A stretch of 64,000 nt of DNA. Source: Dissostichus eleginoides. Taxonomy: Eukaryota. The stretch lies in contig CM062274.1 of the NCBI GenBank assembly GCA_031216635.1, positions 26,420,913 to 26,484,912 of the forward strand, given 5' to 3'. A program made the translations under genes and the position numbers. Below are positions 12,722-54,174 of this stretch, piece by piece (the stretch's first letter is position 1; every line of letters begins with the position of its first letter). The notes beneath the pieces are model-generated. The model was not told where the DNA came from and ran no database searches. It saw only the letters and a program-made list of their open reading frames with translations.

Positions 12722-12792
<71 letters not shown>
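12722..12792. repeat. (GT)n microsatellite
   Basis: Uninterrupted gt dinucleotide run of ~35 units. Confidence 0.95.
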
Positions 12793-12793
<1 letters not shown>

Positions 12794-15403
12794 ATTCGGA
12801 GTTGATTTCATCCTGTTCTTTGACGGTTAGCAATCACAGGGCGGAAGGGAGCTCTGATTGTGATGAACCTGCTTCCTGCTGTTCTCTCTGTCAATCCAAT
12901 CGCTGTGTTTCCTTTCCAGCGGGATGACTACGGTCCAGTTTGCTGTCCACAAATGTTCTTGGACACAAATACTGCCACTTCTTTAGTGCCTCACACTGCC
13001 AATGTTTGCCAGGCCGGTGGCGTTATATATTTTCCTGGGCCAATATCCTGTCACAAAGCCCTACAGTATTGGGATGAGTGCTGCACAGATCAACATACAT
13101 TAACTCTAGTTACAGTTTTTGTTTTTGGTGCTGCCATGTTGTGCTTTCGAGCTCTGTCAATGCAATTAGCTTAGTCAAGCAGACAAATTAACTTGGGGTA
13201 GAAAAGTAATTATGTTAGAAAAGGGCAACTGGGCTTGCTTCGGGCATCAGAGTGACTTCTGGTATTCATAAAGGAACATTAGGATCCTGTGGACGTCATT
13301 AAATCCATCCTCCACAAAACCATCTTGTGTTAAAATAATCAGTCTGACCATTTCTACATCCAATCTGTAGCCGACAGAACCCAAAGGACTCTCCTCAGCA
13401 GCTGAAATCTGTCAGCAGTGACTAATTATAGAGGGTAAGGTGTGGGGATGTCCAAATCCTGAAATAGGAAAGAAAATGTGTGAGCAATGCTTAATAATCT
13501 AGTTTAAAGATTCAAATTAACAGCAGCACTACGCAGAAATCTAACTTTCAAATGTTGAATAATGCTTGTTTCTTTCTGGATATAACTGGTTAGTTATTGA
13601 AAAAAAAGTATTCTCATTCTACTTAACACAGCACAGGAAAAACAGCTATGTTCACATGCCCCCTTGTGGATCACATCTGTCACATATTAATTTTATGGCA
13701 TAGTTTGACACCTTATTAATAAGTAAAATGTCTACCATGGATCTGTTTGGAGCCCCCTTTCTGGGACTGTTAATAAATGCATTGTTGCTCCGTTGGTTTA
13801 TTTAAAAAACCCAGTGTTTATCATCATTTAGTTCTTGTGCAACATGAAGCCTCTTATAAATGTTGAATTAATGTAGTTGTTTTAAGCTTATATAGATTGT
13901 TGGACATCAGTCTCAATTCTAAAGTGCCATCTGAGTTTTCCTTAAGTAAAAATCTCTTTATCTGCATTTGCTATTTTGGATCTTCAGTCATTCTGTGTAG
14001 CTTTTTGGCCAAATGAACCAGCCTGGGTGGAATTAACAATCAAACATAAAAACGAATTACTGTATATTGAGTCATCTCTGTGTGTGACTAGCACCAGGCT
14101 GCTCTGTATCTGCATCACTGCTTTTGCAAACTGTGTTACCATCATCTGGTTTCATATTATTTATATTTCACGTCACTGCAGGAGGTTCAGGCAGTCATAC
14201 ATCTCTGTAGTTCTGTGTTTTTAATAACTTTGTTTGGTTGGTGGTGGGTCAGTGCCTTCTGTCTTTGAGGAACCAATTTCCTCTGCCGATCTGTGAGATA
14301 AAGATTAATTTAAATTCTGATATTTGAATAGATGTTTAAACTGGGAACGTGTGTTTCAACTAATGTACCCATCGTTAAATAATTATATTTCAGCAGTGTG
14401 TGAACAATAGGCTATATAAGTAGTAGTATTCGCCAAATTAAATGTTCCCAACTTGTGTGTAAGTGGGCTTTTTAACCCCTCTGAATAACACTTTATAAGA
14501 ATTTTTGTGAACTCAAATAAATAAGGTCCAGGGAAAAAACATCAAGCTGTTAAATCCTCATTTATATACCAGAATACAAACATAAAACAGCACTCATACA
14601 CAAGTGCTTAGAGTCCACAGCTAAATATTCTGTGAAATATGTTTTAGCATGGTGAACAGGGCTGGGCAGCATAGTGAAATTAACTTTGTCATACTTGTTT
14701 TGTTTGTAGCAGAACTCTTCATCCAGAGGAGGGCAGCATTTTGTCCGTGTTAAAAATAGCTCAGCCCATGTGGATAACTGGAAATTTTAGTGTTTAACCA
14801 GGAAGTCAGCCACAGATTACCTCTGTCAAGTTACAGACACTGACCCTGACATTACTTCTGATTTTCCTTTCAAAGTAAAAGTCTTACAGAAAAGGATTGC
14901 AGCAAATTTCTCAGTGCCTAAAAGAAAGAAATTAAGACTATTGCACAAATCGTCAGAATATTCTTTTAAATCACAAAGAAGCAGATTTTTGGGACATGCT
15001 ACTTAAATGTAATGTATGCTATTTCTTTCTGTAACAAGCACTGGGACACTAGCCAAATAAAAGACAAGTGTCTTATCAGTAGGGGACATACGGGTATTAG
15101 ATGATAAAGATATTTAACTCTTTACATTCACCTTCACATGTAGTTGAATTCACAAACAACAGAAACGTTGTTTGTATTATTTGCATTTAATGCTAAACAT
15201 TATAATAGTGAGAATTAGTTTGGGTAAAAACTATGATGGTGAAGGTATATTTTATAAAGTACTGTACTTAAGTATATGTTGACATATTTGTACTTGACTT
15301 CAGTATATCTATTCTATTCTTTTATAGACATTTTATATTGCATGGTATCGATTTACTTTTTAAATGTACATGATATGACACATTGCTGTACTACTCTGAC
15401 TCT

Positions 15404-21247: not shown

Positions 21248-21946
21248 GTAACACTGAACTCACACACAATCACTAACACAAACACTAAGACATGTATAGG
21301 CAAGGCAAGGCAAGTTTATTTATATAGCACCTTTCAGCACATGGCAATTCAAAGTGCTTTACAAAATAAAATAAAAGACATTTAAGAAGAAATACAGCAG
21401 AAATATAGACAGCTTGAAGCAAATAATTATGAATTGTAAGGCCACATGCTGTCTTTTTCCTAAATACAGTATCCGTTGGTGTGTTCACAAACATAGCCAA
21501 AAACCCTGTTGATGAGTGTGCTGTTGATGGACTTTTACAATGACGTCATTGAAAAACATTGATGTACAGTATGTCTGGGTTGGATTTCTTTTGTATACTA
21601 ATTACATAAATGGTACTTAAGCAAGAAGTATATAATAAATACTTTTTAAAGTTAGTTTATATCATGGTGATCCTTATAAACACTGATAAGTCAGGGTGTC
21701 CGCGGGGTCTTAAAAAGTATTAAAAGTTGATAAATCAATTCAGCGAAAATTAAGGCTATTAAAAAGTATTAAAAAGTGTTAAACGGCATTTTCCAAGGTA
21801 TTAAGAAGGTCCACAGCAACGACAACATGAAACACCCTTTAATTTACTGCAACGACATGTCGGGAAACCCCCTCAAGGCGGCCCCATGCATAGCGCGCTG
21901 TCAAATGCTGCTTCTTATTTTAAGTTTCGTTGCCTTGCTCTGCTCT

Positions 21947-25145: not shown

Positions 25146-25409
25146 CTCTCTCCAGTACCTTTTGTATTTGTTAATCCTTCTGCTTGCGCTCCTACTTTGA
25201 AAAACATTAATGCCATGTAATGTTGATCATCTGTTTATACACGTTTGTGTTGTTCAAAACGTCCTCTGAATCCATGAATCCTTAATAACAGTTGATGAAA
25301 CTGTTTGTTAACAAAAAATAATACTATCTTCAAGTTCATCACAATCAGAGCTTCCTTCCGCTCTGTGATTGCTAACCTTCAAAGAACAGGATGAAAATCA
25401 ACTCTGAAT

Positions 25410-25411
<2 letters not shown>

Positions 25412-25456
<45 letters not shown>
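25412..25456. repeat. (CA)n microsatellite
   Basis: tcacacacacacac...acacgcgc. Confidence 0.9.
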
Positions 25457-26107: not shown

Positions 26108-26850
26108 GTAAGTGGAACATCTGAAATCAAGTTTGTTATGAAATATAAATCCTACTTCTATATACTACTCTTGAATTGCCTAAAACATTACCGAATGTAA
26201 TGAAACGATTGCGTCTATGAGAATTCATTGTATCTAAAACAGAGGTGTCCAAACTTTTTTCACCGAGGGCCACATACAGAAAAACATACGAAGGGCTGGG
26301 CCGCTCATTAGAGGTATATTACCTCGTAAGTTCAGTTATAAATAAGCAAAATCAATCAAATGTAGGTAAATGAAGCTTGTGAGTGTTGGCAGCTCATCCC
26401 TTAAAACAGAAGATTGATTATAATAAGGAGAAATAGAAGGGTGTATTTCATGCTTGTTATGTAAATAAGTCATTGGGCTTTTTCTTAACAACTAAGATAT
26501 GTTAGAAAATGTTTCCAACTTTAATTGACTGAATCCATTGAAAAGTGGTCTTATTAACACATGAAAACTACTGTGTAGTATATTTTTACATTTATCTTTA
26601 AGAAGTACAATACAAGACAAGCACAAGTTTCATTTGTGGACCATATTCCATTATACTTTTTTAATTTGCTGAGGGCCGATTCAAAATGGTCCGCGGGCCG
26701 CATTTGGCCCCCGGGACGTAGTTTGGACACCCCTGATCTAAAAGATGCTTTTCTAATGAGTCTTTGATCCTCATTTCATCCTATGGGGAACCAGATGGCA
26801 ACAACACACTCATCTGTAGTGAGACTGTTTTCCACTCTCCTTATCCACAG

Positions 26851-27034
26851 CACCAGTTTGAAATACTCCAAGCGCAGCGAGACAGACGGCTCTCGGCTGC
26901 TGTTGGTGTGTGATGTGGCGCTGGGTCAGTGCATGGACGTCCATAAGAAAGACCTCACCCTGACCGAGGCTCCGGAGGGATACGACAGCGTGCACGGGGT
27001 CCGCCGCACCCCCAACACTCACTCTGAGTTTGTG
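26851..27034 (+). CDS. parp4: parp4 exon 12 (PARP catalytic)
   Basis: Translation TSLKYSKRSETDGSRLLLVCDVALGQCMDVHKKDLTLTEAPEGYDSVHGVRRTPNTHSEFV (human STSIKYSHPGETDGTRLLLICDVALGKCMDLHEKDFSLTEAPPGYDSVHGV). Donor gtg|gtaggt. Confidence 0.9.
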
Positions 27035-27038
27035 GTAG

Positions 27039-27492
27039 GTGTTTTCATGCTAATTGTTAAGAAAATATCACTCGTAACCGGCTTGAGCTTCAATAATCAG
27101 GATACATGTATTTATTATCCTTGCAAGAATGGAAGTAGTCATCACATACAGAGGATACAGTATGGGACAAATAGTTCCCAGAACAGTGTCCTTCAGATGC
27201 TTTATACAAGAGAGGGTGTATTCAGTCACAAGATGCAGAATACCGGTTCAAAGCAGTATACAATGTTTAGTTTAGATTAGCTAAGATCCACGTAAGCAAT
27301 GATCATGCTTGTCATATGTCTATCTCCATAGAGGCTGAATCATCATGTTAATCACATAGCTGTCGTATTTCTAAAACAGTCCTGATGCTCTTCTAGGTAA
27401 TCACACATCCTGTTACGCACACAGCTACGTACGGCCTTTGTTATCATGCGCTACTCTGATATTGGAAGAGTACATTCAGTATTTTCCCAACA
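27039..27492 (+). mobile_element. MITE family C copy 1 (~450 bp, TIR GTGTT(A/G)GGAAAATA)
   Basis: Begins 4 bp after the exon-12 donor. About 90% identical to the reverse complement of 33477-33899. Confidence 0.65.
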
Positions 27493-28061
27493 CTAATGTA
27501 CATGAAATTAAAGCCTGTTTCTGCAGCTAAAATAGATTTTATTTCTTTATTTTCAAGACTGTGATACAGTTTATCAAATTAGATTTTAAGATGCTGAGTG
27601 AAATAAACAAAGACTGACTGTTTTGCACTATCAAAGCTTGTATTAAGAATCTTAGGAGATAAATGTGTATATGATTGTATAGATGTGTGTGCAAGTACGT
27701 AGTATGTATTGTTTGTCTGTTCATTATTGTAACAAAAACGAAAAACAACTAAAAGGATTTCAAATGTACTTTTGAATTATATATCATGTTTTCTACATAA
27801 TCTCCCTGAAAGAAAAAGTAAAACATATTTTTGGTGATTGTGGTTATAAATGTTATTTAGTGCTGTTGGATTAGAAGTTTTTGACCAAAGTTTCAAATGT
27901 TTTTGAAAAGATAACATATTTCTTTATTTTTAACCATATTCTTTGATATATTCTATAGAGATTTTAATAATTGTTATATACAAATAATTTCAAAGCTTTA
28001 AATAATCTTTACTTCTAAGTCTGTGTACACTGTAACATGTATACTTGTACTTGTGCTCCAG

Positions 28062-28224
28062 GACGATGAGTACGTGGTGTACAGTCCTGATCAGGTGAAA
28101 CTGAAGTTTGTGGTTCAGTTCAGCGTCGAGGGAGACGCACCGAAGGAGTTCAGTCCAAACATCAACATCTGCGCTGAGCCCTCTCCGGACCGAGATGAGA
28201 AGATAACTGAGAAACCTGACAATG
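28062..28224 (+). CDS. parp4: parp4 exon 13 (end of PARP catalytic)
   Basis: Translation DDEYVVYSPDQVKLKFVVQFSVEGDAPKEFSPNINICAEPSPDRDEKITEKPDN (human DDEFVVYKTNQVKMKYIIKFS). Donor aatg|gtatac. Confidence 0.88.
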
Positions 28225-28616
28225 GTATACTTCTCCTGAGGTCCAGCACTTTGAATATCTGATCTGATATACACACCCATATTGTTTTGAGGTGTATGTC
28301 ATGTTTTATTTCAGTTGAGGGATGATGAAAAAAAGTCTTGCTTCTTCCAGCTCCTAAAGACATTTTAAAACCACTTTGCTAATATTATATTGGTATTTGG
28401 GAACAACACAACTTTAATAAAGTAAAATCCCCCAATCCACTTAAATTAGGCAGCGTTTTACTTCAGACAGTAGGAAAGCTTTTCTCCCAAGATTAATGGA
28501 CAGGTCAGATTGGGAATGGAAATAAAGAGATCCACAGTGTTTTGCCATTGAAAGGATCAATGTTGTCATTACACTGCAATCAAACAAACATTGTGTGTGT
28601 CTTGGTTTGTGTGTAG

Positions 28617-28759
28617 ATAAGGAGCTCACGTTGGATGAAATTGAAATCTGTACTAACCCTCTGGACGACATGAAGTCCGGACTGATGGACAGCTCAGGTC
28701 AGCAGCTCCCTCTGCAGGCCGTCCACGTGAAGTGCAAATTGATGGATCTGCTCTCTCAG
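28617..28759 (+). CDS. parp4: parp4 exon 14 (VIT domain start)
   Basis: Translation DKELTLDEIEICTNPLDDMKSGLMDSSGQQLPLQAVHVKCKLMDLLSQ (human ...GNLVPLEDVHIKGRIIDTVAQ). Acceptor gtgtag|, donor ctcag|gtgaaa. Confidence 0.85.
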
Positions 28760-28964
28760 GTGAAAACAGACCAACTCACTCAGATTTTTTGTTCAGATAG
28801 ATGATCTATTGGTTGATTTGAATTAAACCTCGTAAAATGCATCAGACTACCATAGGAGAATATATCTTATTCTCATTGCTAAATGTACTGGATCTAAAAA
28901 AACACTGTTATACAAGTATCTAATCCGTAATTAAACTCAATTGTTCCTTCTGTCCTCTTTTCAG

Positions 28965-29096
28965 GTCATCATCTTCCAGAAATACACAAATCTGAGCTCT
29001 GTGCCCATCGAGGCAAAGTATGTCTTCCCCCTGGAGGATTCTGCAGCAGTGTGTGGATTTGAAGCTTTTATTAATGGGAAACATGTGGTGGGACAG
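28965..29096 (+). CDS. parp4: parp4 exon 15 (VIT)
   Basis: Translation VIIFQKYTNLSSVPIEAKYVFPLEDSAAVCGFEAFINGKHVVGQ is near-identical to human VIVFQTYTNKSHVPIEAKYIFPLDDKAAVCGFEAFINGKHIVGE. Confidence 0.93.
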
Positions 29097-29412
29097 GTAA
29101 CCTAACTTTACTTTCACAGATATTAGTCTTACCCTCTAGTTACTGTATTTATTTCTCATATAGACTTATTTTATTCATTAGATCATTTCTTAATGATTTA
29201 TCTAATTTATTAATATCTGGCAGTTTCTATGTGCTGGGGACCTGTACTTTACATTTATATCATAAAACTTACTGTGAACTGGAAAATAAACTATTTTATT
29301 AAACATATTTTGTCATTGTATTATGTCTAACAGCAAAACTCACCCACCAGTAAAATACAAATTCACTTTATGGATTTTTTGTCAAAACTATTTTGCCTTG
29401 TTTGTATCTCAG

Positions 29413-29499
29413 GTGAAAGAGAAAGAGACGGCACGCAGGGAGTACAAGCAGGCGATAAAGAAAGGACATGGAGCCTACCTCATGGACCAGGACGCCCCC
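29413..29499 (+). CDS. parp4: parp4 exon 16 (VIT)
   Basis: Translation VKEKETARREYKQAIKKGHGAYLMDQDAP (human IKEKEEAQQEYLEAVTQGHGAYLMSQDAP). Donor ccccc|gtatgt. Confidence 0.9.
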
Positions 29500-30047
29500 G
29501 TATGTTCACCCTCTGCATTCAAGATCTAAACAAAACAATCTCTGATTCTGAAATATTACTCTGATCAATCAATATAAAAGAAAGTGTTATTACCCCTTTT
29601 CACAACACCTTATTTACTTATCGAATCAATGCATGAAATTGGGTTGCAAAAGCCGGAAACGACTGGTTACAGAAGTGTTTTCGCTATTCTCTATTCGTTC
29701 AACATTATTATCAGTATTGCTTCATGAAGAGACACGGGACTCGCCCAAATTCTCTGATAAGTAACAATCATATTTACAAGCTTAAACTATTCCACTATAA
29801 CACTATATGTAATTTAGCATTGCAGAAGGCTGTAGAAACTACAATGCCCATGAGCCCCAGAACACCGTTGTTATGGAGAAAAAAAATGTGTTTCAGTTAT
29901 TTACAAACGCAGCCCCATTTATGTTCAGCCAAAGTTCACCCCAAAATTCAAAATACATCTTGGATATGTCTATCTCCCAAGAAATGAACCTTTAATGTAC
30001 ACACCTTGTTTCTTCTACTTTGTATCAACAGATTTTGATTGTTAGTG

Positions 30048-30560
30048 TTAAAGGTCACCTATTATGCAAAATCCACTTTTTCATGTCTCTTCTACATCAA
30101 CATGTGTCCCCTCTGTGTAAAGAGATCCTGAAAGTTTCAGGAAAAAAGATTCTCTCACTTTTTGTGCTGATCCATTTATATAAAAACCTGTCTGAAAATG
30201 AGCTGATCAGATTTGTGCCACTTTATGATGTCATAACGATGTTTTGGGTTGTGTAACCATTAGCCAATCACCAACCAGGTACCCCCCCCCATCCTTATCA
30301 CCTGAATCTCCTCCTAGAGCACCATTGTGTTCTTTTTAACCAAATATCTCTCAGAGGGGCGTGGGGAGGGGCTCCTTATTTTCATCTAAAGTAACAGACA
30401 GAGAATCAGCACTTTGGAAACAGGGCTGAAACAGAGGGGATTATGGGATGCTGCAATGATCTGTTTGGTGTTTGGAGCCAAACACTTCAGAGACAAGTTT
30501 TGTATACATCTGAGACCTATAATATATCGATGAAAAAGACTATAATAGGGGACCTTTAAA
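30048..30560 (+). mobile_element. MITE family B copy (TIR TTAAAGGTCACCTATTATGCAAAA)
   Basis: Starts ttaaaggtcacctattatgcaaaa and ends tataataggggacctttaaa, giving ~24-bp terminal inverted repeats. About 513 bp. Lies in parp4 intron 16. Confidence 0.7.
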
Positions 30561-30666
30561 TACTGTATTCAAGTAAAATGTATACAAAATGATTTTCCTC
30601 CAGAGGTGATTAAAATAGTTATTTCCACTTTGTATCTCTAACTCCTTCACTGTGTGCTCTCTGCAG

Positions 30667-30831
30667 GATGTGTTCACCATCAGTGTGGGCAATCTGCCGC
30701 CCAATGCGACCGTCCTCATTAAAGTCACGTTTGTGTCCGAGCTGGTCGTCACGGACGGGTTAATTTTCTTCCATCTCCCTGGGAGCGTGGCTCCATGGCA
30801 GGAGAGTGCGGCGCTCAACCAGACCACACAG
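30667..30831 (+). CDS. parp4: parp4 exon 17 (VIT)
   Basis: Translation DVFTISVGNLPPNATVLIKVTFVSELVVTDGLIFFHLPGSVAPWQESAALNQTTQ (human DVFTVSVGNLPPKAKVLIKITYITEL...ATVAPWQQDKALNE). Acceptor ctctgcag|, donor acacag|gtaaag. Confidence 0.9.
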
Positions 30832-32205
30832 GTAAAGGGAGGTCCAAATGTATACCCCAACAACAATACTCCACAAAGTAAAGTCTTAATTCACCCTTTC
30901 ACTCTTGCCTTCAACTCCTAATCCACTAACCCCTCGCCCTTATTCCACCTAGCTTAGCACTTTTTACTTTTGTTGTTATTTATTTTTCTTCTTTACTTGA
31001 TTGTAAAGTGCTTTGAGCACCAGGAAAAGCGCTATATAAATGTAATGTAGTATTATTATTATTATATTATTATTATTATTAATCTGAATGTTGTCTTAAG
31101 GTGCAACAACGATTCAATCAGAAGAGATGTTTTTGATGTAAGAATACATATGTATTGCCAGGAATACACAAATGAATGTAATGGAGTTTTGGCGATTAGG
31201 CCCCGTTATGCAGGAGTATCATTTGGGAGGGGAGAACCGATCCGATGAAACCCCCGGGGTCTAGACACTGGTGGTGGTGAATGGATAGTTGGGTTCGGTC
31301 TGAAGGGGAGTGGCTTAGCTTGACCCTGGATTCAGAGGGACAGGAGGTGAAAAAGGGGAGGAGGAGGGTTGCGGGTTGAGTCACCTGAAATGACAGCTGA
31401 CAGAGGGGGGAGAGCAGATTTAAAAAAGGGTTAGCGGAGCGCTATGATAGGCATGTGAGAATAGAGCGAAGTGATTGGTTAAGCTGGGGAGTGACGCCCC
31501 CGATCACTTAATGAGAGGAGAGAGAGTAGTGACGTAGACATAGTAAATGAATGAGTAAAGAAGGTCTTCCTGGTTGAACTTGCGCTGAGCTTCAAAAGTG
31601 CCTTAAAAGAGCGAAACAGCAAAAAAGAGTATAATACACACCCGAATAAGATAAGATGGACCTTTATCAATCCCGTGGGGAAATTCAGTAGTTTAACAGC
31701 AACAGATTAAAATTGGAAAACAGGATAGCACAGAATCACACAGATTGATACAATTAAGGATAAAATCAAAGATACAAATTAAAAATGGTAAATGACTATA
31801 AAATAAGAAATGAATTCAAATGAACATATATACATATTTAGTCATGTGTACATATTATTTACATGTGTGTTTGAAAACAATGTGTATTTTGCAATATATG
31901 CATGTGTTTTCATCAGTTTGAATTATTTACTTTTTTAGTATTTTTCTCCTTTTTTGTGGCTTGAAAGCAATTAAATATATAAGATATCAAATAAAGCGGG
32001 ACTTTTCATAGTCTTCCTTCATAAAGCTATCCTACGTCTGCATGAACCATTCAACAATGGAGAGATACAAATCGGAGGTGTTGCTGTTTTTATTGTTCAG
32101 TTTTTCCAGTTGTGTTTGTGTTCGTCTAACTTACTTATGTGCGGGGCTCTGCATTGAAAACTAAATACTGTTAATGTTCCTTGTTTGTCTTGCATTGATC
32201 AACAG

Positions 32206-32243
32206 GTCACTGTGGAGAAGGTGTGTGTGAAAGATGAGGCGAG
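32206..32243 (+). CDS. parp4: parp4 exon 18 (short)
   Basis: Translation VTVEKVCVKDEAR (human DTVEKICIKEIGT). Acceptor gatcaacag|, donor gcgag|gtgagc. Phase links exons 17 and 19. Confidence 0.75.
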
Positions 32244-32555
32244 GTGAGCTATGTTTTGTATTTTGACTATTTTAATGCACTTTAGCTTAATTGTAATCCT
32301 TCAATTTGACACCACCTTTTGTTCTGAATGTTTGTGAAAAAGCACACTGTCCATTAACTTGTTTATCCACAAATATTGCATCAATGACACTTTTGTCCGT
32401 TAATAATTTGTCATTATCTCAGTTAAACATTTGGATAGAGAAATAAGTTGTGTTTTTCATCGTTGCCTCTTTGTCCTTCTTACTGTGTTTTTGTAATGTA
32501 GACTTTAATGTACATCACATTAAAGGCTTTGCTCAATCTGTTGTTTATTTCTCAG

Positions 32556-32637
32556 AGAGTTCACCCTGGACATGTCGATTGAGATGCCGAATGAGATCAC
32601 AAAGCTGCGTTGCATCAGCCATAAAGTCAAGATCAAG
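32556..32637 (+). CDS. parp4: parp4 exon 19
   Basis: Translation EFTLDMSIEMPNEITKLRCISHKVKIK (human SFSLTMSIEMPYVIEFIFSDTHELKQK). Donor atcaag|gtaatc. Confidence 0.85.
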
Positions 32638-32827
32638 GTAATCTGTGTTTGACATTTGTTTGGGATTTTTTAGACATTGTTACATGGCTGTCAGTTATCG
32701 TCTCTGTCTTACTGTGTTCCTCCACACATCAAGAAATAACAAATATTGTACACTTCTATAGAAATAGCATGTATTCTCTTGACTTGATGCGTTTGGAAAT
32801 GCAGACAAAAGTGTACCAAAAATATGT

Positions 32828-33070
32828 AAAATGCCTTAAAGGTGGGGTAGGTAAGTTTGAGAAACCGGCTCGAGATACACTTTTTGTTATATTCCATGGA
32901 ATGCTCTTAACATCCCGATAGCAATGAATATCTTAAGTGCTTTGACAAAAAATCGTTCGTGTGTGTTGGAGGAGGGGCTCTGTAAGGAAGTGGCAGATTT
33001 TTTCAGGTTGTGTATTTTCAAATTCTAGCGCACTCGAGCTGGTTTCTCCAAAATTACCTACCCCACCTTT
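32828..33070 (+). mobile_element. MITE family A copy (TIR AAAGGTGGGGTAGGTAA..., internally deleted)
   Basis: aaaggtggggtaggtaagtttgagaaaccggctcgag ... ctcgagctggtttctccaaaattacctaccccaccttt. Long palindromic termini. Confidence 0.65.
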
Positions 33071-33476
33071 AATGCTAAATTGTTTGGCATTTTGATCATG
33101 TAGCCGTACATTGCACAACCTGGATAATGAAAAGTAAAATGTCTACGTATGTAATTCTACTATTGGGGTTGTCATTTCTACCTCACTCTAGTGCTGAAAT
33201 GATGCCAGAGTTTTTTATAATTAACAATATCTTGATTTAGCTAAATAGTTTTCATCTCCAAATCTCCCTGGCACAGCTTCAATAAAATACCTTGTTTTTT
33301 TATCATACCAAAATTAGTTTTGTCTTTATCTGCTAATCAGACTGCATAAATGTACAGTTTTTGTATCGGATTACGCAGATTTGTCATTATGTTGGAGGTA
33401 TCTTACACTAAATATTTGACTCGTCGTTACTATGTTTGATAGTATAGTCCATAATAAAATAAAATGATTTCTTTAT

Positions 33477-33899
33477 GTTGGGATAATACTGAATGTACTC
33501 TTCCAATATCAGAGTACACATGATAACAAAGGCCCTACGTAACTGTGTACATGACAGGATGTATGATTACCTAGAAGAGCATCAGGACTGTTTTAGGCAT
33601 ATGACAGCTATGTGATTAACATGATGATTCAGCTTCTATGGAGATAGACATATGACAAGCATGATCATTTCTGACGTGGAGCTAATCTGAACTAAACATT
33701 GAATACTGCTTTCTATTCCTCCATCTTGTGACTGTGTAACTCCCTCTCTTGTATATAAGCATGTGAAGGACACTTTTCAGGGGAACTATTTGTCCCAAAT
33801 GCTCTGTATGTGATGACTACTTCCATTATTACAAGGATAATTAATACATGTATCCTGACATTGAAGCTCAAGCCGGTGACGAGTGATATTTTCCTAACA
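33477..33899 (-). mobile_element. MITE family C copy 2 (inverted orientation)
   Basis: gttgggataatactgaatgtactcttccaatatcagag ... gtgatattttcctaacac is the reverse complement of copy 1. Lies in parp4 intron 19, ~60 bp upstream of exon 20. Confidence 0.65.
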
Positions 33900-33960
33900 C
33901 TTTATGATCTTCATGTGTATCCTTTTTTCTTTTCTGTGTGTTTGTGTGATATTCCCACAG

Positions 33961-34098
33961 AAAACCGACTGTAAGGCAGTGTTGAGCGTGCTGCCAGGAG
34001 AGGTCATGGGTCCAGTTGGCTTCATGCTGTCCGTCACTCTGTCAGAGGTCCACCTGCCCAGGATGTGGGTGGAGAAACACCCCGACAAGGACAGCCAG
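33961..34098 (+). CDS. parp4: parp4 exon 20
   Basis: Translation KTDCKAVLSVLPGEVMGPVGFMLSVTLSEVHLPRMWVEKHPDKDSQ (human RTDCKAVISTMEGSS...LPRMWVEKHPEKESE). Confidence 0.9.
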
Positions 34099-34124
34099 GT
34101 CTGCATGTCTGTCTGCATGCATTC

Positions 34125-34705
34125 CTCTCTTTATCTCTCTCTGGAGCCAAGGCAGAACGTATACAAGTTAGCGCTGAGCTTCAGTCTGCAACGTTCAAAA
34201 CAACAGATAGAGCCAGACATCTAGGTGTCGTCATGGACTCTGACCTGAGTTTCAACAGTCACATTAAAACAGTTACTAAATCAGCCTACTATCACCTAAA
34301 GAACATATTAGGATTAAAAGACTAATGTCACAGCAGGATTTGGAAAAACTTGTCCATGCTTTTATCTTCAGCAGACTTGACTACTGTAATGGTGTCTTCA
34401 CAGGTCTCACTAAAAAATCCATTAGAAAGCTGCAGCTGATTCAGAACGCCGCTGCTCGAGTCCTCACTAACACTAAGAAAGTACTTTTAAATCCAGGCTG
34501 AAGACTTTTCTCTTTGCCGCTCTTTTAATTGAACTATTCATATCTTAAACTGCACTGTAACTTTTATTCATGTATTTTGTCTTTTAATGTTTATTTTATT
34601 ATCTTTGCTTTTTAATGACTGTTTTTAAATGCCATTTTCTTAATGTCTTTCATTTTGTAAAGCACTTTGAATTGCCTTGTGTTGAAAGGTGCTATATAAA
34701 TAAAC
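34125..34705 (+). mobile_element. Non-LTR retrotransposon 3' fragment (teleost-common repeat)
   Basis: Translated remnant ...DSDLSFNSHIKTVTKSAYYHLKNI...LIHAFI.SRLDYCN...KLQLIQNAAARVLT, then tail gtaaagcactttgaattgccttgtgttgaaaggtgctatataaataaa. The same tail occurs at 21285-21365 (-), 51440-51840 (+), 30985-31085 and 4225-4290. Confidence 0.55.
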
Positions 34706-34774
34706 TTGTCTTGCCTTGCCTCTCTTCATCTCCCTCTGTCTCTTTGTTTAAACATCTCTCACTTTCTCCTCTAG

Positions 34775-36342: not shown

Positions 36343-36981
36343 GTCTCAAAGGGTCATAGGTCACAGGGGAGGGGGGTTTTCTCAGAAAGGAGAATACATT
36401 CCTGCGTTTTAAAGGTCCCCTATTATACTGTTTTTCATCAATATATTATAGGTCTCAGATATAAAATCTTATTTTACCTGCCCCTTCTTAAAAAAAATAA
36501 CAACAAACCAAATGAAATAACCATACGAACGTAAAATAAAAGCAACTATTCTTTCAGTCACAGTTGCTTACAAATACTGAAACATAAAACCAGAACACAA
36601 TCAAAAGTAAACTTCAGACTGTCTGATTACGCTTTCTTTATACATTTTCTTAAACATATTGATCTAGTTATATGATTGGAAATATGTCCTGACACCAGAG
36701 ACACAAAGACATAATGGCTGAGCTGTCTAACAACATAAGAATGAAAACAAAGTAAACACAAGTCTGAATGAAAATAGAACAGAAATGGGGGAATGTCCCT
36801 ACTAAGTGTGTAAGGAATCTCACTCTCCCTCATAACCACGACCGATACGGGTTGTAACTCTCTCAGCTTTAATGACAAAACTTGTTGTATTCAGCCTTGC
36901 CTTGCTTTGCACACTGAGGTTCTTTTTCACAACAGACATTTTAAAGTTGCTGTTTTTTTTATGTTTGTTCGGTCATTTCAG

Positions 36982-40159: not shown

Positions 40160-40318
40160 GACTCAGAACAACCAGAGGAAGGCTTTACAGACATCCCAAA
40201 GCTACTCGCCGAGGAAGATGTGGACTTCCTCCCCTACATGGGCTGGATTTCTCCTCAGGACAGTGAAGAGGAGGACTCTGAGGATTATTTGGAAAGGAGG
40301 AGGTCCAAATGCTTAATG
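40160..40318 (+). CDS. parp4: parp4 exon 29
   Basis: Translation DSEQPEEGFTDIPKLLAEEDVDFLPYMGWISPQDSEEEDSEDYLERRRSKCLM (human DENESPFPDIPKVSELIAKEDVDFLPYMSWQ). Donor aatg|gtaaagtcac. Confidence 0.88.
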
Positions 40319-40420
40319 GTAAAGTCACATTGTGCAATCAGGGGACAAGAAAAAAGCATCTTTACTTGTTATGATTTACTAATTGACAATATCCTTTCTG
40401 CCTTCGTCTCTCCGTTGTAG

Positions 40421-40480
40421 GAGTTTGGGTTCCAAGCAACCGCTGAGGATGACTCTGAAGAGATCTCTGATTGCTTAATG
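40421..40480 (+). CDS. parp4: parp4 exon 30 (duplicated mini-exon)
   Basis: Translation EFGFQATAEDDSEEISDCLM, with acceptor ccgttgtag| and donor aatg|gtaaagtcac. It belongs to a tandem exon+intron unit duplication, so its inclusion in mature mRNA is uncertain. Confidence 0.65.
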
Positions 40481-40582
40481 GTAAAGTCACATTGTTTAAT
40501 CGGGGGACAAGAAAAAGGCATCTTTACTTGTTATGATTTACTAATAGACAATATCCTTTCTGCCTTCGTCTCTCCGTTGTAG

Positions 40583-40873
40583 GAGTTTGGGTTCGAAGTG
40601 ACCGCTGAGGATGACTCTGGGGATGCTAAGGATGAGTCTGAGGATGAGTCTGAGGATGCTAAGGATGAGTCTGAGGATGAGTCTGAGGATGAGTCTAAGG
40701 ACTTGTCTAAGGATGAGTCTGAGGATGAGTTTGGGGATGCTAAGGATGAGTTTAAGGATGCTAAGGATGAGTCTGAGGATGCTAAGGATGAGTCTAAGGA
40801 TGCTAAGGATGAGTCTGAGGATGAGTCTGAGCCTCTGGTTGGATTAAAAAGTGATCCAATAATCCAAATGAAG
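40583..40873 (+). CDS. parp4: parp4 exon 31 (acidic octapeptide-repeat exon)
   Basis: Translation EFGFEVTAEDDSGDAKDESEDESEDAKDESEDESEDESKDLSKDESEDEFGDAKDEFKDAKDESEDAKDESKDAKDESEDESEPLVGLKSDPIIQMK. It carries 24-bp (DESEDAKD-type) repeats. The frame is confirmed by ORF 40598..40948. Confidence 0.8.
40617..40840 (+). repeat. parp4: Coding 24-bp tandem repeat (acidic DESEDAKD-like octapeptides) inside parp4 exon 31
   Basis: gatgagtctgaggatgctaag-type units repeated ~9 times with variants (gac ttg tct aag, gat gag ttt ggg/aag). Confidence 0.85.
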
Positions 40874-41453
40874 GTAATGTCACATTGCATTTACTATAAT
40901 AATGAGGAAACAAAAGCGTTTGCTTGTTGTTATTTGAAGATGCCCTAAAATCCCAAACTTCCCTCCAGAGGGAATTTCTCTGAAAAATAAAGCATTTTTT
41001 GTACATTTAAGCATGTAAACAGACAGGAGAGGCACAAAATACAAATATGAACCTGAAAATGAGGATAATATGTCCTCTTTAATAAATAACACTTTAACAA
41101 GTTGCATTTGTCTCCCTTTGTGCTTTGTATGATAGGGGACTTATTCCCGTAAAATGTTCAGCAACAAATTGCTGCTTCACATTTGCTATTTTAAAGTGAC
41201 AATAAATGCATCGCTTTCAGATAGAGCTGTTATTTGTAATGCATTGACTGTGTTAAAACTAAACAAAAACATACCAATTGGCAGGTTAACAAATCCTTAA
41301 TGAGTGTCCTCGTGTGGCGTCACTCACATGTTATTAGAGAGGCAGGACAATGCAATACTGCAACATTAATTTTTGTTTGAAAAAAATTCAATTGTCCAGT
41401 TATCATTTGTAAGAAAAAGGTTTTGACTTTTTTATTGTTTCTGTGTTTTTTAG

Positions 41454-43351
41454 CATGGGTCCTCTCTGAGAAGAAGAGGGGACGTGGACAGATCGGCACC
41501 TTCAGCAGCGTGTGAACCCCCCATGCGTGATTTTGAAGTAGCACTACATTCTTTTGAAATGCATCAATTGGATGAAGAATTGCATTTGGATTCAGACTGC
41601 TCATTTCATCCTCCATCATCTCCTCCTTTCCACATGAAGGAACTCACCCAAAAACGTTCTTTCCGTGCGCCTCTCCCTCTGATCAGTGGTCTTCCAAGCC
41701 GCTCATTTCATCCTCATGGACTAATGGCAGCAGAAGTTCCCAGACGCCACGTCATCATGTTCGGTGCAACGCAAGCTGCAACTGACTCAGATGTGTCGAT
41801 GAAGATGAGCGATGATGGGCCTGAACCTCCTGTGACAGGGAAAGCATTTTCATTCTCAAGACAGAAAAAAGCACTCTCCTATTCTGCTCATTCACTTCAA
41901 TGCCAGTCAACCTCTCAAGACCCTCCAGCTCCCCCTCCTCCTACTCTTGGTCCAGCTCCTCCGCTAGCTGAAATTTTACTTGGCACTAATGCCATGTCGG
42001 ATCAGGTCAGTGAGTCACTGGTGGGACGCGCTTTCGGGAACAGAGCGCTATCAGCTTCCTATCAAACAGGAACCTCCTCTGGTCTCTGGGATGCAGGATT
42101 GTTTGCACCCCAGGAACGCAGCTCGAGTTTTGGATCTCCTGTGAAAGGTCAGTCAGGAGGGTTTTCCAGTAGTGCAGCATCTTTATTCTCCTCAGATCAA
42201 AGACAAAAAGGAAGCTTATTTTCTGATGAACTTGAAAGGGCAGGCTTTGGTCTCATGGGTTGTGCGCTTGAAGAAGAACCCGTTAGACAAGATCAGCCAA
42301 TGAAAGATGCCCCTCCTGTTTCACTTGATGAAGCATCAGATGTCGATGTAGAGCGACGTATGCACAAATCCACAGGTAGACCATTAGCAATGCTTGAAGA
42401 AGATGATCCCTCATGTGGAAGTTCTTGGGGAGGACTGGTCCACATGAAGGAACTCGCCCAAAAATCTCCTCTTCGTGTGCCACTCCCTCCGGGTGGTCGT
42501 CAAATTCCCTCATTTCATCCTCGAGAACAAATGGCAGCAGAAGTTCCCCAACGCCACAGCATCATGAACGGTGCAACGCGAGCTGCAACTGATTCAGATG
42601 TGATGATGATGATGAACGACCGTGCGCCTGAACCTCCTGTCACAGGGAAAGCATTTTCATACAGAAATGCACTGTCCTATTCTGCACATTCACTTCAACG
42701 CCAGTCCACCTCTCGAGACCCTCCAGCTCCCCCTCCTCCTACTCTTGGTTCAGCTCCTCCGCTAGCTGAAAGTTTACTTGGCACTAATGCCATGCCGGAT
42801 CAGGTCAGTGAGCAAATGGAATCACAAGCTCTCAGGATCAGAGCGCTATCACCTTCCTATCAAACAGGAATCTCCTCTGGTCTCTGGTCTGGACTCCAAA
42901 GCAGCTTGAGTTGTCCCACCTTTCCAGGTGCTATGAATATCCATGTCGGTGCGTCTGATTTGGATATGACAACTGAATGTGCGACTGAATCTCCTGTGAA
43001 AGGTCAGCCAGGAGGGTTTTCCAGGAGTGCATCATCTTTATTCTCCACAGCTCAGCTCTTATTTTCTGATGAACAAGAAATGGCAGGCTTTGGTCTCAGG
43101 GGTTGTGCGCTTGAAGGAAAACCCATTAGACAAGATCAGCCAATGAAAGATGCCCCTCCTGTTCCACTTGATGAAGCATCAGGTGTCCATGTAGAGCGAC
43201 GTAGGCACAAATCCAGAGGTAGAGCATTAGCAATGCCTGAAGAAGATGATCCCTCATGTGGAAGTTCTTGGGGAGGACTGCTCCCGCGTAAACGTGGGAT
43301 TGGTTTTTTAAAGGCCTCCAGGATGCGTCAATCAGCTGATCAACCATTTGA
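41454..43351 (+). CDS. parp4: parp4 exon 32 (1.9 kb exon with two ~270-aa tandem repeats; S/P-rich)
   Basis: Open frame 41454-43352 (ORF 41484..43355). Acceptor gtgttttttag|cat is in phase with exon 31. Two ~810 bp tandem copies (FHMKELTQK...SCGSSWGGL / VHMKELAQK...SCGSSWGGL). The proposed donor tttga|gtgagt at 43352 overlaps an in-frame TGA. Confidence 0.78.
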
Positions 43352-43682
43352 GTGAGTCCCCAAACGTTTTTTTGTTTTAATAGATAAGCTCCTACTAAGA
43401 AAACTGTGATAACTATTGAATAATAGTTGTTGACAAAAAATGCTCTACTTATTTATAATTTTTTTAAAGGCTTTGGTTGACAAAATTAACATAGATGAAT
43501 TCATCTGCATGTTAACTGAAAAGTATTGTTGTAAATCCTCTGATTATGTACATGTATGCATGTGGGAAAAAAAGTCAGTATATGTGTGTATTTATGTTTA
43601 CATTCTTTGATTTATGTGTGTTTTTTAATACACAACATCCAGTGTTCTCTAAGAGTGTCCTGTTGTGATCATGTCGTTTCAG

Positions 43683-43749: not shown

Positions 43750-44128
43750 GTAAGAAAATATCAAAATGAACGTATTGTTCTCGAGTACCTTTTCTTTTCC
43801 TGCTGACAGGATACAATGACAGCCCTTTGAATGGTTTATCAATTCTGATCCTTTGATCATTTCTGTGTGAAACCCATTTGGGATGATTAGCTGTCGGAAG
43901 GCTGCTTTGCACTTCTTGTTAAAACACTGTAACTATAGCGATACAGCGGTTAGAGATATGTTTACTGACAGCGGGGCAAATTTGGGTTTCAAAAGCAATC
44001 TTATGCAACGTGGCGATGTTCGGTATTATCGTACAAGCATTTTGGAAAAATACTTTAGATGCTTTTAAAAGTACTAATACCTAACTGTGGAAATACTCCA
44101 CTCCTTATCATGCACTCAAACCCTTACT

Positions 44129-44511
44129 TAAAGGTAGGGTAGGTAAGAATGGAGAAACCAGCTTGAGTGCGCTAGAATTTGAAAGTACACAACCGAAAGA
44201 AATCTGCCCCTTCCTTCAGACTTCCTTACAGAGCCCCTCCAACACACACGAACGCGCACATGACCAATGAGGGCACGAGATAAGTTTGTGCACAGATGGA
44301 AGGCTGACAGGCAGGTAGGCCATCCAGTTATTTTAGCCGGGCCGGCTCAGATGATTGGTCGTGCTTTTTACAGCGCACGGCTTCCAAGATGAAATATTTG
44401 TATGTATTTATTGTCAAAGCATTTAATTTATTCATTGCTATCGGGATGTTAAGAGCATTCCATGGAATATAACAAAAAGTGTTTCTGAAGTGAATTACCT
44501 ACCCCACCTTT
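44129..44511 (-). mobile_element. MITE family A copy (full, ~385 bp)
   Basis: aaaggtagggtaggtaagaatggagaaaccagcttgagtgcgctag ... gaattacctaccccacctttaag. In parp4 intron 33. Orientation opposite to copies 1 and 3. Confidence 0.65.
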
Positions 44512-45221
44512 AAGTAAAAGTATATAAACATTATCAGTAAAATGCATTAGTTAATCGTAAGTAAAAGTTTGCAATGAAATATATCATCAGTGAGTGTTTT
44601 ACTATTAAATGGTGTTTTTTGGATGTATTTATTGCTGCAGTAATGCTTATGTTATTGTGCTGCTGCAGATGGTTAAGGTTATATGTACATTGCAGGTCCT
44701 TTACATACAAGTTGAATCTACAGCAATTCATTATATTCTATAAGATTATGTTTGTAGCTTTGTCGCTGTCCTGCAGAACCATGTATCTCTGAACATTTAA
44801 AAAAACGATGTGATCATACATTTTTCTGCTGATCCAAAAGGCTTTTTTCATTATTTATTCACATTAGGAAGTATGATATATTTTTCAACACATAAAGGGA
44901 ACACCTATCCTTCATCAGATTATCACAAACACATCTTAAGATGCATGGTTTTAAACTGGAGAGGAAGGGAATGAAAATTGGTGATCTGAAATCTATTTGC
45001 TGCATAAAAGGGAAATACTCAAATTCAAATTTAAGGTACTTTTATTAAACGTAAATACAGTACTGGAGTAAATGTACTTGGTTGAGTTCCACAACTCTGT
45101 ACATTACACATATAACCTTTTGCACCTTTTTCTATTTCTATTTTTTTTTTTTAGCTGGCACTTTAACCATGGGGGCGTAATTACTACTTTATGAATTTGT
45201 GACATTTTATTTGTGTTTCAG

Positions 45222-50057: not shown

Positions 50058-50155
50058 GTTGTGACTTCCTCAAAAAGAGACATTTTTTAGAAATTGAAAC
50101 CAACCAACACACTTTCCTCAGTCACATACTTCAATACTTGACATTCCCATGAGCG
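50058..50155 (+). promoter_or_regulatory. Proximal promoter of lectin gene 1 (PU.1/ETS box + ISRE-like GAAATTGAAACC)
   Basis: gtgacttcctcaaaaagag is the reverse complement of a PU-box (CTTTTTGAGGAAGT). GAAATTGAAACC at ~50090 matches the ISRE/IRF consensus GAAANNGAAAC. A second GGAA lies at 50113. The block is conserved in the paralog upstream region 61477-61600. Confidence 0.5.
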
Positions 50156-50225
50156 ATGGAGGAAATCTATCTCAACCTTGACGATGTCAAACCCCTAAGC
50201 TCAAGATCATCAACAAAACAAGAAG
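50156..50225 (+). CDS. C-type lectin gene 1, exon 1 (cytoplasmic tail)
   Basis: Translation MEEIYLNLDDVKPLSSRSSTKQE, ATG at 50156, donor gaag|gtaagg. The paralogous exon sits at 61601. Confidence 0.8.
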
Positions 50226-50297
50226 GTAAGGGTCAGTCAGACAGAGTGAGCTGTGGATTTTGGATTTATTATACTCCCTGGTTTTCTCTGTGTTCAG

Positions 50298-50387
50298 GTC
50301 CCAGCAGATTTCCCCCAGCGTCTGTTCTCGGTCTGGGGCTGCTGGTTGTTTTCCTGCTGGCTGGACTCATCGGCCTCGCTGTCCACC
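50298..50387 (+). CDS. C-type lectin gene 1, exon 2 (transmembrane segment)
   Basis: Translation GPSRFPPASVLGLGLLVVFLLAGLIGLAVH is a hydrophobic signal-anchor typical of type II C-type lectin receptors. Donor cacc|gtgagt. Confidence 0.8.
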
Positions 50388-50605
50388 GTGAGTCTTATTT
50401 TTAATATATATATTATATTAGTTTCATAAGTCATTTTGAACGTGTGATTTTAAGGAGCAATATTCTGCTCTGAAAGATGCACATTTGACCAAAACATCTA
50501 TTGTTTTTCTATTTTTCTCCTAGGGCGAAAGTAGATAACATTCACTTTGGTTTGTGTCAGTCGGATTGCATCAGGTAATTTAAGAAACATCTTTTTTCAT
50601 TTCAG

Positions 50606-50793
50606 ACCATAACTCAGTAGGTGGCGCAGCTGCAGATCTCTCCGCTGTCAAAGCAAACCTGACGTTTGACGTGAGCGTCTCCAGGCCAGAGATCAGCTGC
50701 TCTACTCAGTGACTGAAGAGAGAGACAGACTGAATGCCAACCTCACTGAAAAGACCAGAGAGGTTGACAGGCTTCAGAGTTTGTCCAAACAGA
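50606..50793 (+). CDS. C-type lectin gene 1, neck exon (frame-inconsistent; possible internal acceptor at 50710)
   Basis: Homologous to the lectin-2 neck exon, with a single ...LQARDQL...NANLTEKTREVDRLQSLSKQ unit. Using the canonical acceptor cattcag|acc gives an in-frame TGA at 50710. Only the internal acceptor ctactcag|tg restores the frame shared with the donor caga|gtgagt. Confidence 0.5.
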
Positions 50794-51439
50794 GTGAGTG
50801 CTTTTCTATGACGGTTTTGCACAGGGCTGGGCAATATGGATTATATCAATTGTCATGATATTTTTGAGCAAATACCTCAATATTGCATCGATATTCTAAG
50901 GTTGGCAATTGCTCCTTTGAAATAATAACATGAGCGTACCAGAGAATGTCATTGGAAATGTTATAATGTGATTGAACAAAGATATAATGCAAACTTAAAA
51001 AGGTCAAAGACAAAAGATGTTACACTCTACAATGATGTCTTCATACTAGCGTGTTGTCTTTTCATAAAAATATGAAAAGATAACATGCCAACTTACTATA
51101 TGATGAAATCCAAAGTTCAACAAACTTATCTATTATTGTTGGACAATATCAATATATTGCCAAACCCTTCTGCATAAAAGTGTAGAACACCTTATTTTAC
51201 TCTCAGCACCTTTTCTTCACTCTCTGTTAATTTAATCATACATTTTTTTTATGTGTACAGCCCTTTAAAAAAAATCTTAGTAACATCATTTTAAAAGCTA
51301 AAAAGCTTCAGTCCCATCACTTCACATAATTATAAGATTGTGAATAACTAAATATCTCTTTATTAGGATGTTTTAAAAATGTTGACACCTTGTATTCTGC
51401 ACATTTTTAACTGCTCTCTTTTTATAGGTTCTGTCCCTG

Positions 51440-54128: not shown

Positions 54129-54174
<46 letters not shown>

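Follow-up and report, generated by a model that had tools for sequence, protein, structure and literature searches.

Inverted copies of an LTR-like element in introns 12 and 19 of parp4 from Dissostichus eleginoides

The window (the whole 64-kb stretch of Dissostichus eleginoides DNA analysed here) contains parp4 on the plus strand. The best relatives of the gene are PARP4 fragments from Dissostichus mawsoni (89%) and Notothenia coriiceps (96%), and Pfam analysis of the gene product indicates PARP and VIT domains. All notothenioid proteins among the matches come from genome annotation. Coding exon 2 shows an apparent 1-nt deletion around 16822. The 12th coding exon (26851–27034) encodes part of the PARP catalytic domain and ends on a whole codon at the donor GTG/gtaggt. 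It is followed on the same strand by exon 13 (28062–28224, 163 nt), which begins with DDEYVVY and encodes the final part of the catalytic domain, exon 14 (28617–28759, 143 nt), exon 15 (28965–29096, 132 nt), in which the VIT domain begins, exon 16 (29413–29499, 87 nt), exon 17 (30667–30831, 165 nt), exon 18 (32206–32243, 38 nt), exon 19 (32556–32637, 82 nt), which ends on a whole codon, and exon 20 (33961–34098, 138 nt), which starts on one (KTDCKAV). Exon 18 shows homology to the segment TTVEKIGV of P0053 and has an AG acceptor and a GT donor. The exon numbering of the initial annotation agrees with this model, as do its exon-13 acceptor (28062), its exon-19 donor (32637) and its count of seven exons between the two repeats. 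The length given there for exons 13–19 (797 nt) does not: the true sum is 163 + 143 + 132 + 87 + 165 + 38 + 82 = 810 nt, or 270 codons. Because exon 12 closes and exon 20 opens with a whole codon, this sum must be a multiple of three. The block is in frame, and the frameshift that had been predicted on its skipping is incorrect.

Introns 12 and 19 of parp4 each carry one copy of a repeat, and the two copies are reverse complements. As defined by alignment and by its termini, copy A occupies 27055–27492 (438 bp, intron 12) on the minus strand, antisense to parp4 in its LTR-like orientation, while copy B occupies 33476–33899 (424 bp, intron 19) on the plus strand, in the sense orientation. BLAST aligned 27052–27496 with 33902–33473 (395 of 449 columns identical, 88% including gaps, E = 2e-148). 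Global alignment of the trimmed elements gave 388 matches, 32 mismatches and 22 gap columns, corresponding to identities of 92.4% without gaps and 87.8% with gaps; the initial annotation had set 70% as the value below which its reading would fall. The inverted pair that it reported is real. Its bounds (27039–27492 and 33477–33899) place the pair essentially correctly, apart from the left start, which lies at 27055 rather than 27039. With exon 12 ending at 27034, the left arm begins 20 nt from the donor and not 4 bp from it as claimed, whereas the approximately 60 bp quoted between the right arm and the exon-20 acceptor (33961) compares well with the 61 nt measured. The window contains only these two copies of the element.

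Both copies have the termini TGTT...AACA, that is 5'-TG...CA-3', and a 13-nt imperfect terminal inverted repeat (TIR) matching at 12 of 13 positions (TGTTRGGAAAATA...TATTTTCCYAACA) is present in both and in their D. mawsoni orthologues. Each copy is bounded by a perfect 5-bp target-site duplication (TSD): CTAAT at 27050–27054 and 27493–27497 for copy A, in the arrangement CTAAT/TGTT...AACA/CTAAT, and CTTTA at 33471–33475 and 33900–33904 for copy B. Two 5/5 matches at fixed boundaries have a chance probability of about 1.5e-6. A 3-bp TAA TSD of the PIF/Harbinger-like type was also considered and was dropped once the termini had been aligned in register. The element (424–438 bp) is non-coding, with short broken ORFs only. 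In one orientation of the 438-nt element a TATAWA motif near position 288 is followed 90 nt on by AATAAA near position 378, about 60 nt from the end; this layout is kept across independent copies, but the motifs are short and fairly common in DNA of 39% GC. On the minus strand of copy A the motifs are TATAAA (27206–27201) and AATAAA (27116–27111). Copy B has TATATAA at 33752–33758, and its AATAAA is mutated to AATTAA (33839–33844).

In our view, the arms are copies of one retroelement-derived family of approximately 440 bp and are most likely solo LTRs. Like the solo LTRs of LTR retrotransposons and ERVs, they have TG...CA ends, a short TIR and a 5-bp TSD, are a few hundred bp long and occur singly; in one orientation they also show, as motifs in AT-rich DNA, a poly(A) signal preceded by a TATA box. 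The initial annotation had labelled them MITEs, i.e. non-autonomous cut-and-paste DNA transposons, and a small, non-coding element of approximately 440 bp with a 13-nt TIR, a TSD and scattered solitary copies in introns does resemble one. To our knowledge, however, the only TIR transposon superfamily with a 5-bp TSD in the classification of Wicker et al. (2007) is Transib, which has CAC... termini; these are absent from the element, so that its TSD length and TG...CA ends fit no cut-and-paste superfamily. The TATA-to-AATAAA order in a single orientation, a directional layout of promoter-like and poly(A)-like motifs, likewise argues against a MITE, and the genuine MITE in the window (element C, see below) differs in having an 18-nt TIR and TTAA ends. 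We consider the MITE assignment unlikely. A search of 26500–34500 with ARAGORN and Rfam (E ≤ 1) returned no tRNA-like or Rfam signal. tRNA-derived SINEs lack a TIR and have a tRNA-related head with pol III boxes and a tail that is A-rich or made of simple repeats; the present element has a TIR and lacks a tail, and a SINE or structured-RNA origin was rejected.

Five copies of the element could be recovered in all, each of them solitary and inside an ordinary host gene. An exact 24-mer scan of the metagenome collection located two partial solitary copies (L002 and L003), and a search of protein space, for which stop-free translations of the element were concatenated, located one degraded copy (P0121/L004); exact 24-mer scans of the viral and prokaryotic collections located none. 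L003 has one divergent terminus and an intact AATAAA, as does copy A for the latter, while L004 has no recognisable TSD and carries an unrelated internal insertion. The ORFs beside L002 and L003 are host exons, with no gag or pol among them, and neither copy is therefore a full-length element. No element with two direct LTRs, PBS, PPT and gag-pol was found in the metagenome, viral, prokaryote or protein-space searches, and the LTR assignment consequently rests on the termini, the TSD length and the short motifs. The family differs from solo LTRs with a recovered parent carrying PBS, PPT or gag-pol, and its LTR membership, whether Gypsy, Copia, BEL or ERV, is putative. An excess of solo LTRs over proviruses is normal (PMC6298018).

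The two arms would have arisen by one insertion into intron 12 (antisense) and another into intron 19 (sense), with LTR–LTR recombination leaving solitary LTRs. That they are independent insertions is indicated by their differing perfect TSDs (CTAAT and CTTTA) and by the absence of homology beyond these. The presence of just two copies in the window could also suggest an inverted segmental duplication of the local intron in place of two transpositions. We attach almost no probability to this reading: it is ruled out by the distinct perfect TSD of each copy, with homology ending exactly at TG/CA, and by the further copies at the unrelated loci L002, L003 and L004.

D. mawsoni carries both arms at the orthologous positions, and N. 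coriiceps carries arm B; in the latter the arm-A region is missing from the scaffold owing to assembly gaps. No empty insertion site was found in either species. As judged from these orthologous sequences, both arms were fixed before the split from D. mawsoni, and arm B before the Notothenia split. Mismatches between orthologues amount to 1.8% (A) and 1.4% (B), compared with 1.1–2.5% in adjacent unique intron, and A:B complementarity is equal in the two species (92.4% versus 91.7% in the D. mawsoni comparison). Neither arm-versus-intron divergence nor complementarity in the two species gave a signal of constraint, in a comparison of low power with 6–8 substitutions per arm. The arms thus look like ordinary neutral insertions drifting at the intronic rate.

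Because the arms are inverted, parp4 pre-mRNA can fold them together. As the initial annotation had described, they are highly complementary and lie in both introns bordering exons 13–19; the RNA duplex prediction that it had suggested gave 393 intermolecular base pairs at -630 kcal/mol, a very stable predicted duplex. The predicted gain from pairing was -441 kcal/mol, compared with -11 ± 3.6 kcal/mol in shuffled controls, and the longest perfect A:B runs are 35, 33, 32 and 31 bp. The pre-mRNA may accordingly form an imperfect duplex of about 390 bp, its outer end separated from the exon-12 donor by 20 nt and from the exon-20 acceptor by 61 nt. Exons 13–19 would then occupy a closed loop, in which 569 nt separate the duplex from the exon-13 acceptor and 838 nt separate the exon-19 donor from the duplex. 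Introns 12 and 19 are short, at 1027 and 1323 nt, and within its own intron each arm lacks a competing partner.

The window also contains several other long inverted pairs. One is formed by element C, a MITE bounded by TTAA with an 18-nt TIR, of which arm C1 (30048–30559, 512 bp) lies in intron 16 and arm C2 (37745–38258) begins 8 nt past the donor of an exon whose last base is 37736. The predicted C1:C2 duplex (486 bp, -860 kcal/mol) is stronger than A:B and interleaved with it, and C1:C2 would compete with A:B for pairing. The loop that it would close is a different one, running from exon 17 through the exon with its end at 37736, and the rival circle so defined would join donor 37736 to acceptor 30667.

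Reverse-complementary matches are known to favour back-splicing and skipping alike (PMC8330042), and the architecture of the arms is one that promotes both (PMC8330042, PMC8516420). A circRNA from exons 13–19, or skipping of these exons, would be a plausible product of the modelled pair. The expected by-products would be an 810-nt circRNA in which exon 19 is joined to exon 13, an in-frame mRNA joining exon 12 to exon 20 and A-to-I editing of the duplex. The predicted back-splice junction (32637 to 28062) reads AAGTCAAGATCAAG joined to GACGATGAG (upstream side also written AAAGTCAAGATCAAG), and the predicted skip junction (27034 to 33961) reads CTGAGTTTGTG joined to AAAACCGACTG (also written CACTCTGAGTTTGTG joined to AAAACCGACTGTAAGG). 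The skipped mRNA would be shorter by 270 amino acids, losing the final portion of the PARP catalytic domain along with the entire VIT domain.

The parp4 pair resembles inverted Alu and other reverse-complementary (RCM) pairs in that complementary TE copies occupy the introns on either side of an exon block and a long duplex joins the splice sites, so that a circle and a skipped mRNA are expected (PMC8330042, PMC8516420, PMC7819710). It differs in that its repeats are LTR-like and not SINEs, its arms are about 430 nt long where 13–40 nt suffice, and the arms enclose seven exons over 6 kb; the parp4 circle is, moreover, a predicted one.

Whether the pair functions as a cis-driver, giving a detectable exon 13–19 circRNA, skipping or both at biologically relevant levels, can be weighed from several directions. 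The stability of the predicted duplex, the short flanking introns free of competing partners and the approach of the exon-12 donor and exon-20 acceptor to within about 80 nt in the duplex are all favourable. So too are the loss of both circle and skipped transcript on RCM deletion in C. elegans zip-2 (PMC8330042) and the report of a circRNA from human PARP4 (listed in PMC8645988). Against these stand the neutral evolution of the arms, the predicted competition from the stronger interleaved C1:C2 pair, the error in the predicted frameshift and the 6 kb between the arms, a distance that may allow splicing of intron 12 before transcription reaches arm B. Most circRNAs that are abundant or conserved do not, furthermore, depend on inverted repeats nearby (PMC7819710), and the circles driven by TEs are for the most part by-products, largely of young insertions (PMC8516420). 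On balance, a working cis-driver seems possible but doubtful. By analogy with the literature we would expect by-products at a low level at most, and we do not expect the pair to be a regulatory device under selection. The explanation that we regard as probable is that of independent solo-LTR insertions which have drifted neutrally and whose pairing yields at most low-level by-products.

The predicted A:B duplex reaches about -1000 kcal/mol near 0 °C, the temperature at which Antarctic notothenioids live, and in these fishes the LTR pair might conceivably act as a cold-stabilized RNA bridge looping out exons 13–19. If so, the consequences would be an in-frame PARP4 isoform without the catalytic end (from DDEYVVY) and the VIT domain, and an 810-nt circRNA with an endless ORF that could undergo rolling translation. 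The exon 13–19 circle would be a multiple of three in length (810 nt) and, in the parp4 frame, would contain no stop and six in-frame ATGs. We nevertheless regard the cold bridge as highly improbable.

Were the pair to drive back-splicing or skipping, it would provide a non-mammalian, LTR-based case of TE-seeded circRNA or isoform birth, datable to the notothenioid radiation and giving a vault-PARP isoform that is in frame and probably without catalytic activity. At present, the main yield is the density of inverted TE pairs in this parp4 gene, together with three corrections to the initial annotation (the TE class, the donor distance and the reading-frame consequence). The finding itself is an ordinary one and is no surprise to a specialist.

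Copy B could also act alone and independently of pairing, giving parp4 a promoter within the intron or a site of premature polyadenylation. It is in the sense orientation, with the exon-20 acceptor 61 nt away, and has kept its TATA box (33752–33758); in mouse, LTRs that lie in the sense orientation close to acceptors are disruptive more often than any other class (PMC3088655). Its poly(A) signal, however, is AATTAA, in contrast to the intact AATAAA of copies A and L003, and the insertion predates the Notothenia split and has been tolerated ever since; such a role appears quite improbable. Since mammalian LTRs are depleted at positions like that of copy B, in the sense orientation and 61 nt from an acceptor (PMC3088655), some effect of this copy on splicing is conceivable.

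Copies A and B, the arms of an inverted repeat lying in introns 12 and 19 of parp4 (+ strand), were recovered in a repeat search of the window as four collinear inverted blocks (27052-27492 versus 33476-33902). Gapped BLAST returned one joined alignment of 27052-27496 with 33902-33473, in which 395 of 449 columns are identical (E = 2e-148), and found no third copy in the 64 kb of the window. Trimmed to their true ends, the two elements show 388 matches, 32 mismatches and 22 gap columns, which corresponds to 92.4% identity if gaps are ignored and 87.8% if they are counted; the figure of about 90% in the initial annotation was thus a fair one.

The ends of the repeat were defined by lining up copies A and B with three copies from elsewhere, and across these five copies family homology starts with TGTT and ends with AACA. 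Copy A (27055-27492) is flanked by a perfect 5 bp direct repeat (CTAAT/CTAAT) and copy B (33476-33899) by another (CTTTA/CTTTA); given the base composition, the chance of two such 5/5 target-site duplications (TSDs) at fixed boundaries is about 1.5e-6. Because the two TSDs are different and no homology extends into the flanks, the arms represent two separate insertions, which also rules out a local inverted duplication as their source. The two termini match as an imperfect 13 nt inverted repeat (TGTTGGGAAAATA/TGTTAGGAAAATA). With the family read as in copy B (+), TATAWA occurs at about 288, AATAAA at about 378 and the CA end at about 438. Copy A and L003, one of the copies from outside the window, keep the AATAAA hexamer; in copy B it is mutated to AATTAA, and copy A of D. 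mawsoni has lost 1 nt from it.

An LTR is defined jointly by TG...CA ends, a short terminal inverted repeat (TIR), a TSD of 4-6 bp and promoter-to-poly(A) order on one strand. All of the further copies recovered are solitary and adjoin ordinary host exons: L002 and L003 lie beside such exons in fish DNA stray in metagenome Ga0308020, and L004 (ENA assembly ERZ27317027) was found through a spurious ORF. L004 is degraded and has no TSD, and the terminus of L003 is divergent. No tRNA-like or Rfam signal was found in the repeat region. In the 2007 classification of Wicker et al., 5 bp TSDs are reportedly confined to Transib among the classical cut-and-paste superfamilies, and Transib termini are said to start with CAC. 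In our view, the ends, TSDs, motif order and solitary copies make it likely that arms A and B are solo LTRs, and the MITE label given to them initially is probably wrong in view of the TG...CA ends, the 5 bp TSDs and the TATAWA-to-AATAAA order. The host exons beside repeat copies in the metagenome and environmental assemblies encode a thrombospondin-like EGF repeat and an acidic-tract protein; the fish nuclear DNA present in these assemblies supplied the additional copies of the family.

The window is eukaryotic DNA with 39% GC. At about 97% identity to contig JAAKFY010000018 of D. mawsoni, against about 92-93% to a Notothenia coriiceps scaffold, it comes from a notothenioid close to Dissostichus. 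Peptides from the putative exons match PARP4 fragments, the best being from D. mawsoni (89%; PARP, VIT_2 and VIT domains) and N. coriiceps (96%). Mapping of these relatives onto the window placed coding exons 1-11 at 16497, ~16800, 18259, 18884, 19045, 19796, 20755, 21077, 23813, 24940 and 25983. Exon 12 (26851-27034), whose numbering in the initial annotation agrees with the coding-exon count from the relatives, has a complete codon at its end (...SEFV), as exon 20 (33961-34098) does at its start (KTDCKAV). Exons 13 (28062-28224, 163 nt), 14 (28617-28759, 143 nt), 15 (28965-29096, 132 nt), 16 (29413-29499, 87 nt), 17 (30667-30831, 165 nt), 18 (32206-32243, 38 nt) and 19 (32556-32637, 82 nt) show an AG acceptor and a GT donor in every case. 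The exon-13 acceptor at 28062 and the exon-19 donor at 32637 had been placed exactly, but the length of 797 nt assigned to the block is incorrect; the exons sum to 810 nt, or 270 codons. As the phases of exons 12 and 20 are fixed by homology, the block length is necessarily divisible by three whatever the small exons, so that skipping of exons 13-19 preserves the frame and the frameshift predicted for it is refuted. The resulting protein would lack the VIT domain altogether and, from DDEYVVY onward, the final ~20 residues of the PARP catalytic domain.

RNA duplex prediction between the arms, suggested in the initial annotation, gave a stable cofold of -630 kcal/mol in which 393 base pairs connect the two arms, the longest perfect runs being 35, 33, 32 and 31 bp. 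The predicted gain over the self-folds is -441 kcal/mol, compared with -11 +/- 3.6 kcal/mol for shuffled partners; at 0 C the duplex is predicted at about -1000 kcal/mol. At its outer end, the exon-12 donor would be 20 nt away and the exon-20 acceptor 61 nt away; inside the loop that it closes, 569 nt would precede the exon-13 acceptor and 838 nt would follow the exon-19 donor. Either outcome, exon 12-20 skipping or exon 19-13 back-splicing, would be compatible with this modelled geometry; both depend on reverse-complementary matches in C. elegans zip-2 (PMC8330042).

The window is full of dispersed repeats, and inverted transposable-element pairs are common in it. Element C (30048-30559/37745-38258), with a length of 512 bp, an 18 nt TIR (TTAAAGGTCMCCTATTAT) and TTAA at both ends, is, by contrast, a textbook MITE. 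The C1:C2 pair is longer and more similar (94.9% identity) than A:B, its predicted duplex is more stable (486 bp, -860 kcal/mol), and because the two pairs interleave it offers a competing loop. The downstream C copy begins only 8 nt past the donor site of an exon whose last base is 37736. Other inverted pairs are 44125-44514 with 55854-56247 (395 bp, 95%), 12749-12871 with 25331-25454 (124 bp, 94%) and, in parp4 introns, 21298-21371 with 34648-34721 (74 bp, 95%). Fragments of element C (55 bp) were also noted at 36408-36463.

Both arms occupy orthologous positions in D. mawsoni, and N. coriiceps has arm B at the corresponding junction and an assembly gap in the arm-A region. Mismatches to D. 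mawsoni affect 1.8% (arm A) and 1.4% (arm B) of aligned bases, compared with 1.1-2.5% in neighbouring unique intron, and arm-to-arm complementarity is alike in the two species (92.4 and 91.7%). The comparison with D. mawsoni, which has low power at 6-8 substitutions per arm, gave no indication that the arms or their pairing are constrained; within that power, the arms evolve neutrally.

The arms are 6 kb apart, and intron 12 may often be spliced out by the time transcription reaches arm B. Proximal inverted repeats tend not to be required for the circRNAs that are most abundant and conserved (PMC7819710). Where circRNAs are associated with transposable elements, young insertions seem for the most part to yield them as side products, without selection for the circles themselves (PMC8516420). 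A review on glioblastoma (PMC8645988) includes a circ-PARP4 of human origin, an entry that is uninformative for the fish locus. Given the repeat-rich window, the stronger C1:C2 pair, the spacing, this literature and the neutral arms, we rate A:B as ordinary. A detectable circle or skipped mRNA arising from the putative pairing seems rather unlikely, and a selected function of the pair highly improbable. Copy B is mildly unusual in being sense-oriented, LTR-like and only 61 nt from an acceptor, a zone in which mammalian LTRs are depleted and mutagenic insertions concentrated (PMC3088655); its mutated poly(A) hexamer fits tolerated decay. The initial annotation therefore described a real pair with a very stable potential duplex, but erred on the frameshift and probably on the element class. 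We regard the pair as two old, neutrally evolving insertions, probably solo LTRs, with the potential to form an RNA duplex: a new instance of a well known kind of feature, of low interest unless RNA data say otherwise.

Several further features of the locus were noted. In coding exon 2, the segment 16794-16830 has a 1 nt deletion near 16822, reading GATGTATC-AACCTGAGC where D. mawsoni and N. coriiceps have GATGTATCCAACCTGAGC; the shifted frame meets an immediate TGA (..NDVST*). The deletion is either a real loss-of-function allele or an indel error of the assembly; the remaining mapped parp4 exons are all open. In the public D. mawsoni annotation (JAAKFY010000018, 27766837-27792301), parp4 is broken up into three or more separate gene models (428 aa, BRCT; 303 aa, PARP/VIT; 128 aa, VWA), of which the 303-aa model uses an upstream donor and loses VRRTPNTHSEFV from the end of exon 12. 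A 633-aa open frame (41454-43352) contains an internal direct duplication (41629-42089 with 42439-42887, 85%; 42131-42441 with 42986-43284, 89%), and acidic tandem repeats occur at 40310-40826 (within 40160-40945); in the C-terminal half of parp4, repeats have presumably undergone lineage-specific expansion. An open frame at 34280-34498 in intron 20 (...LVHAFIFSRLDYCNGVF...LQLIQNAAARVL...) looks by eye like the C-terminal portion of a reverse transcriptase from a non-LTR retrotransposon. Open frames at 57663-58850 are gag-like and aspartic-protease-like, apparently a Gypsy-type retrotransposon remnant, and are unrelated in sequence to the A/B repeat. Downstream of parp4, tandemly duplicated genes (~50000-63600) appear by eye to resemble C-type lectins (CPAGWR...CYLLSTGKASWEQSR...), with direct repeats at 50148-50640 and 61593-62075 (88%) and at 52215-52395 and 63048-63230 (91%).
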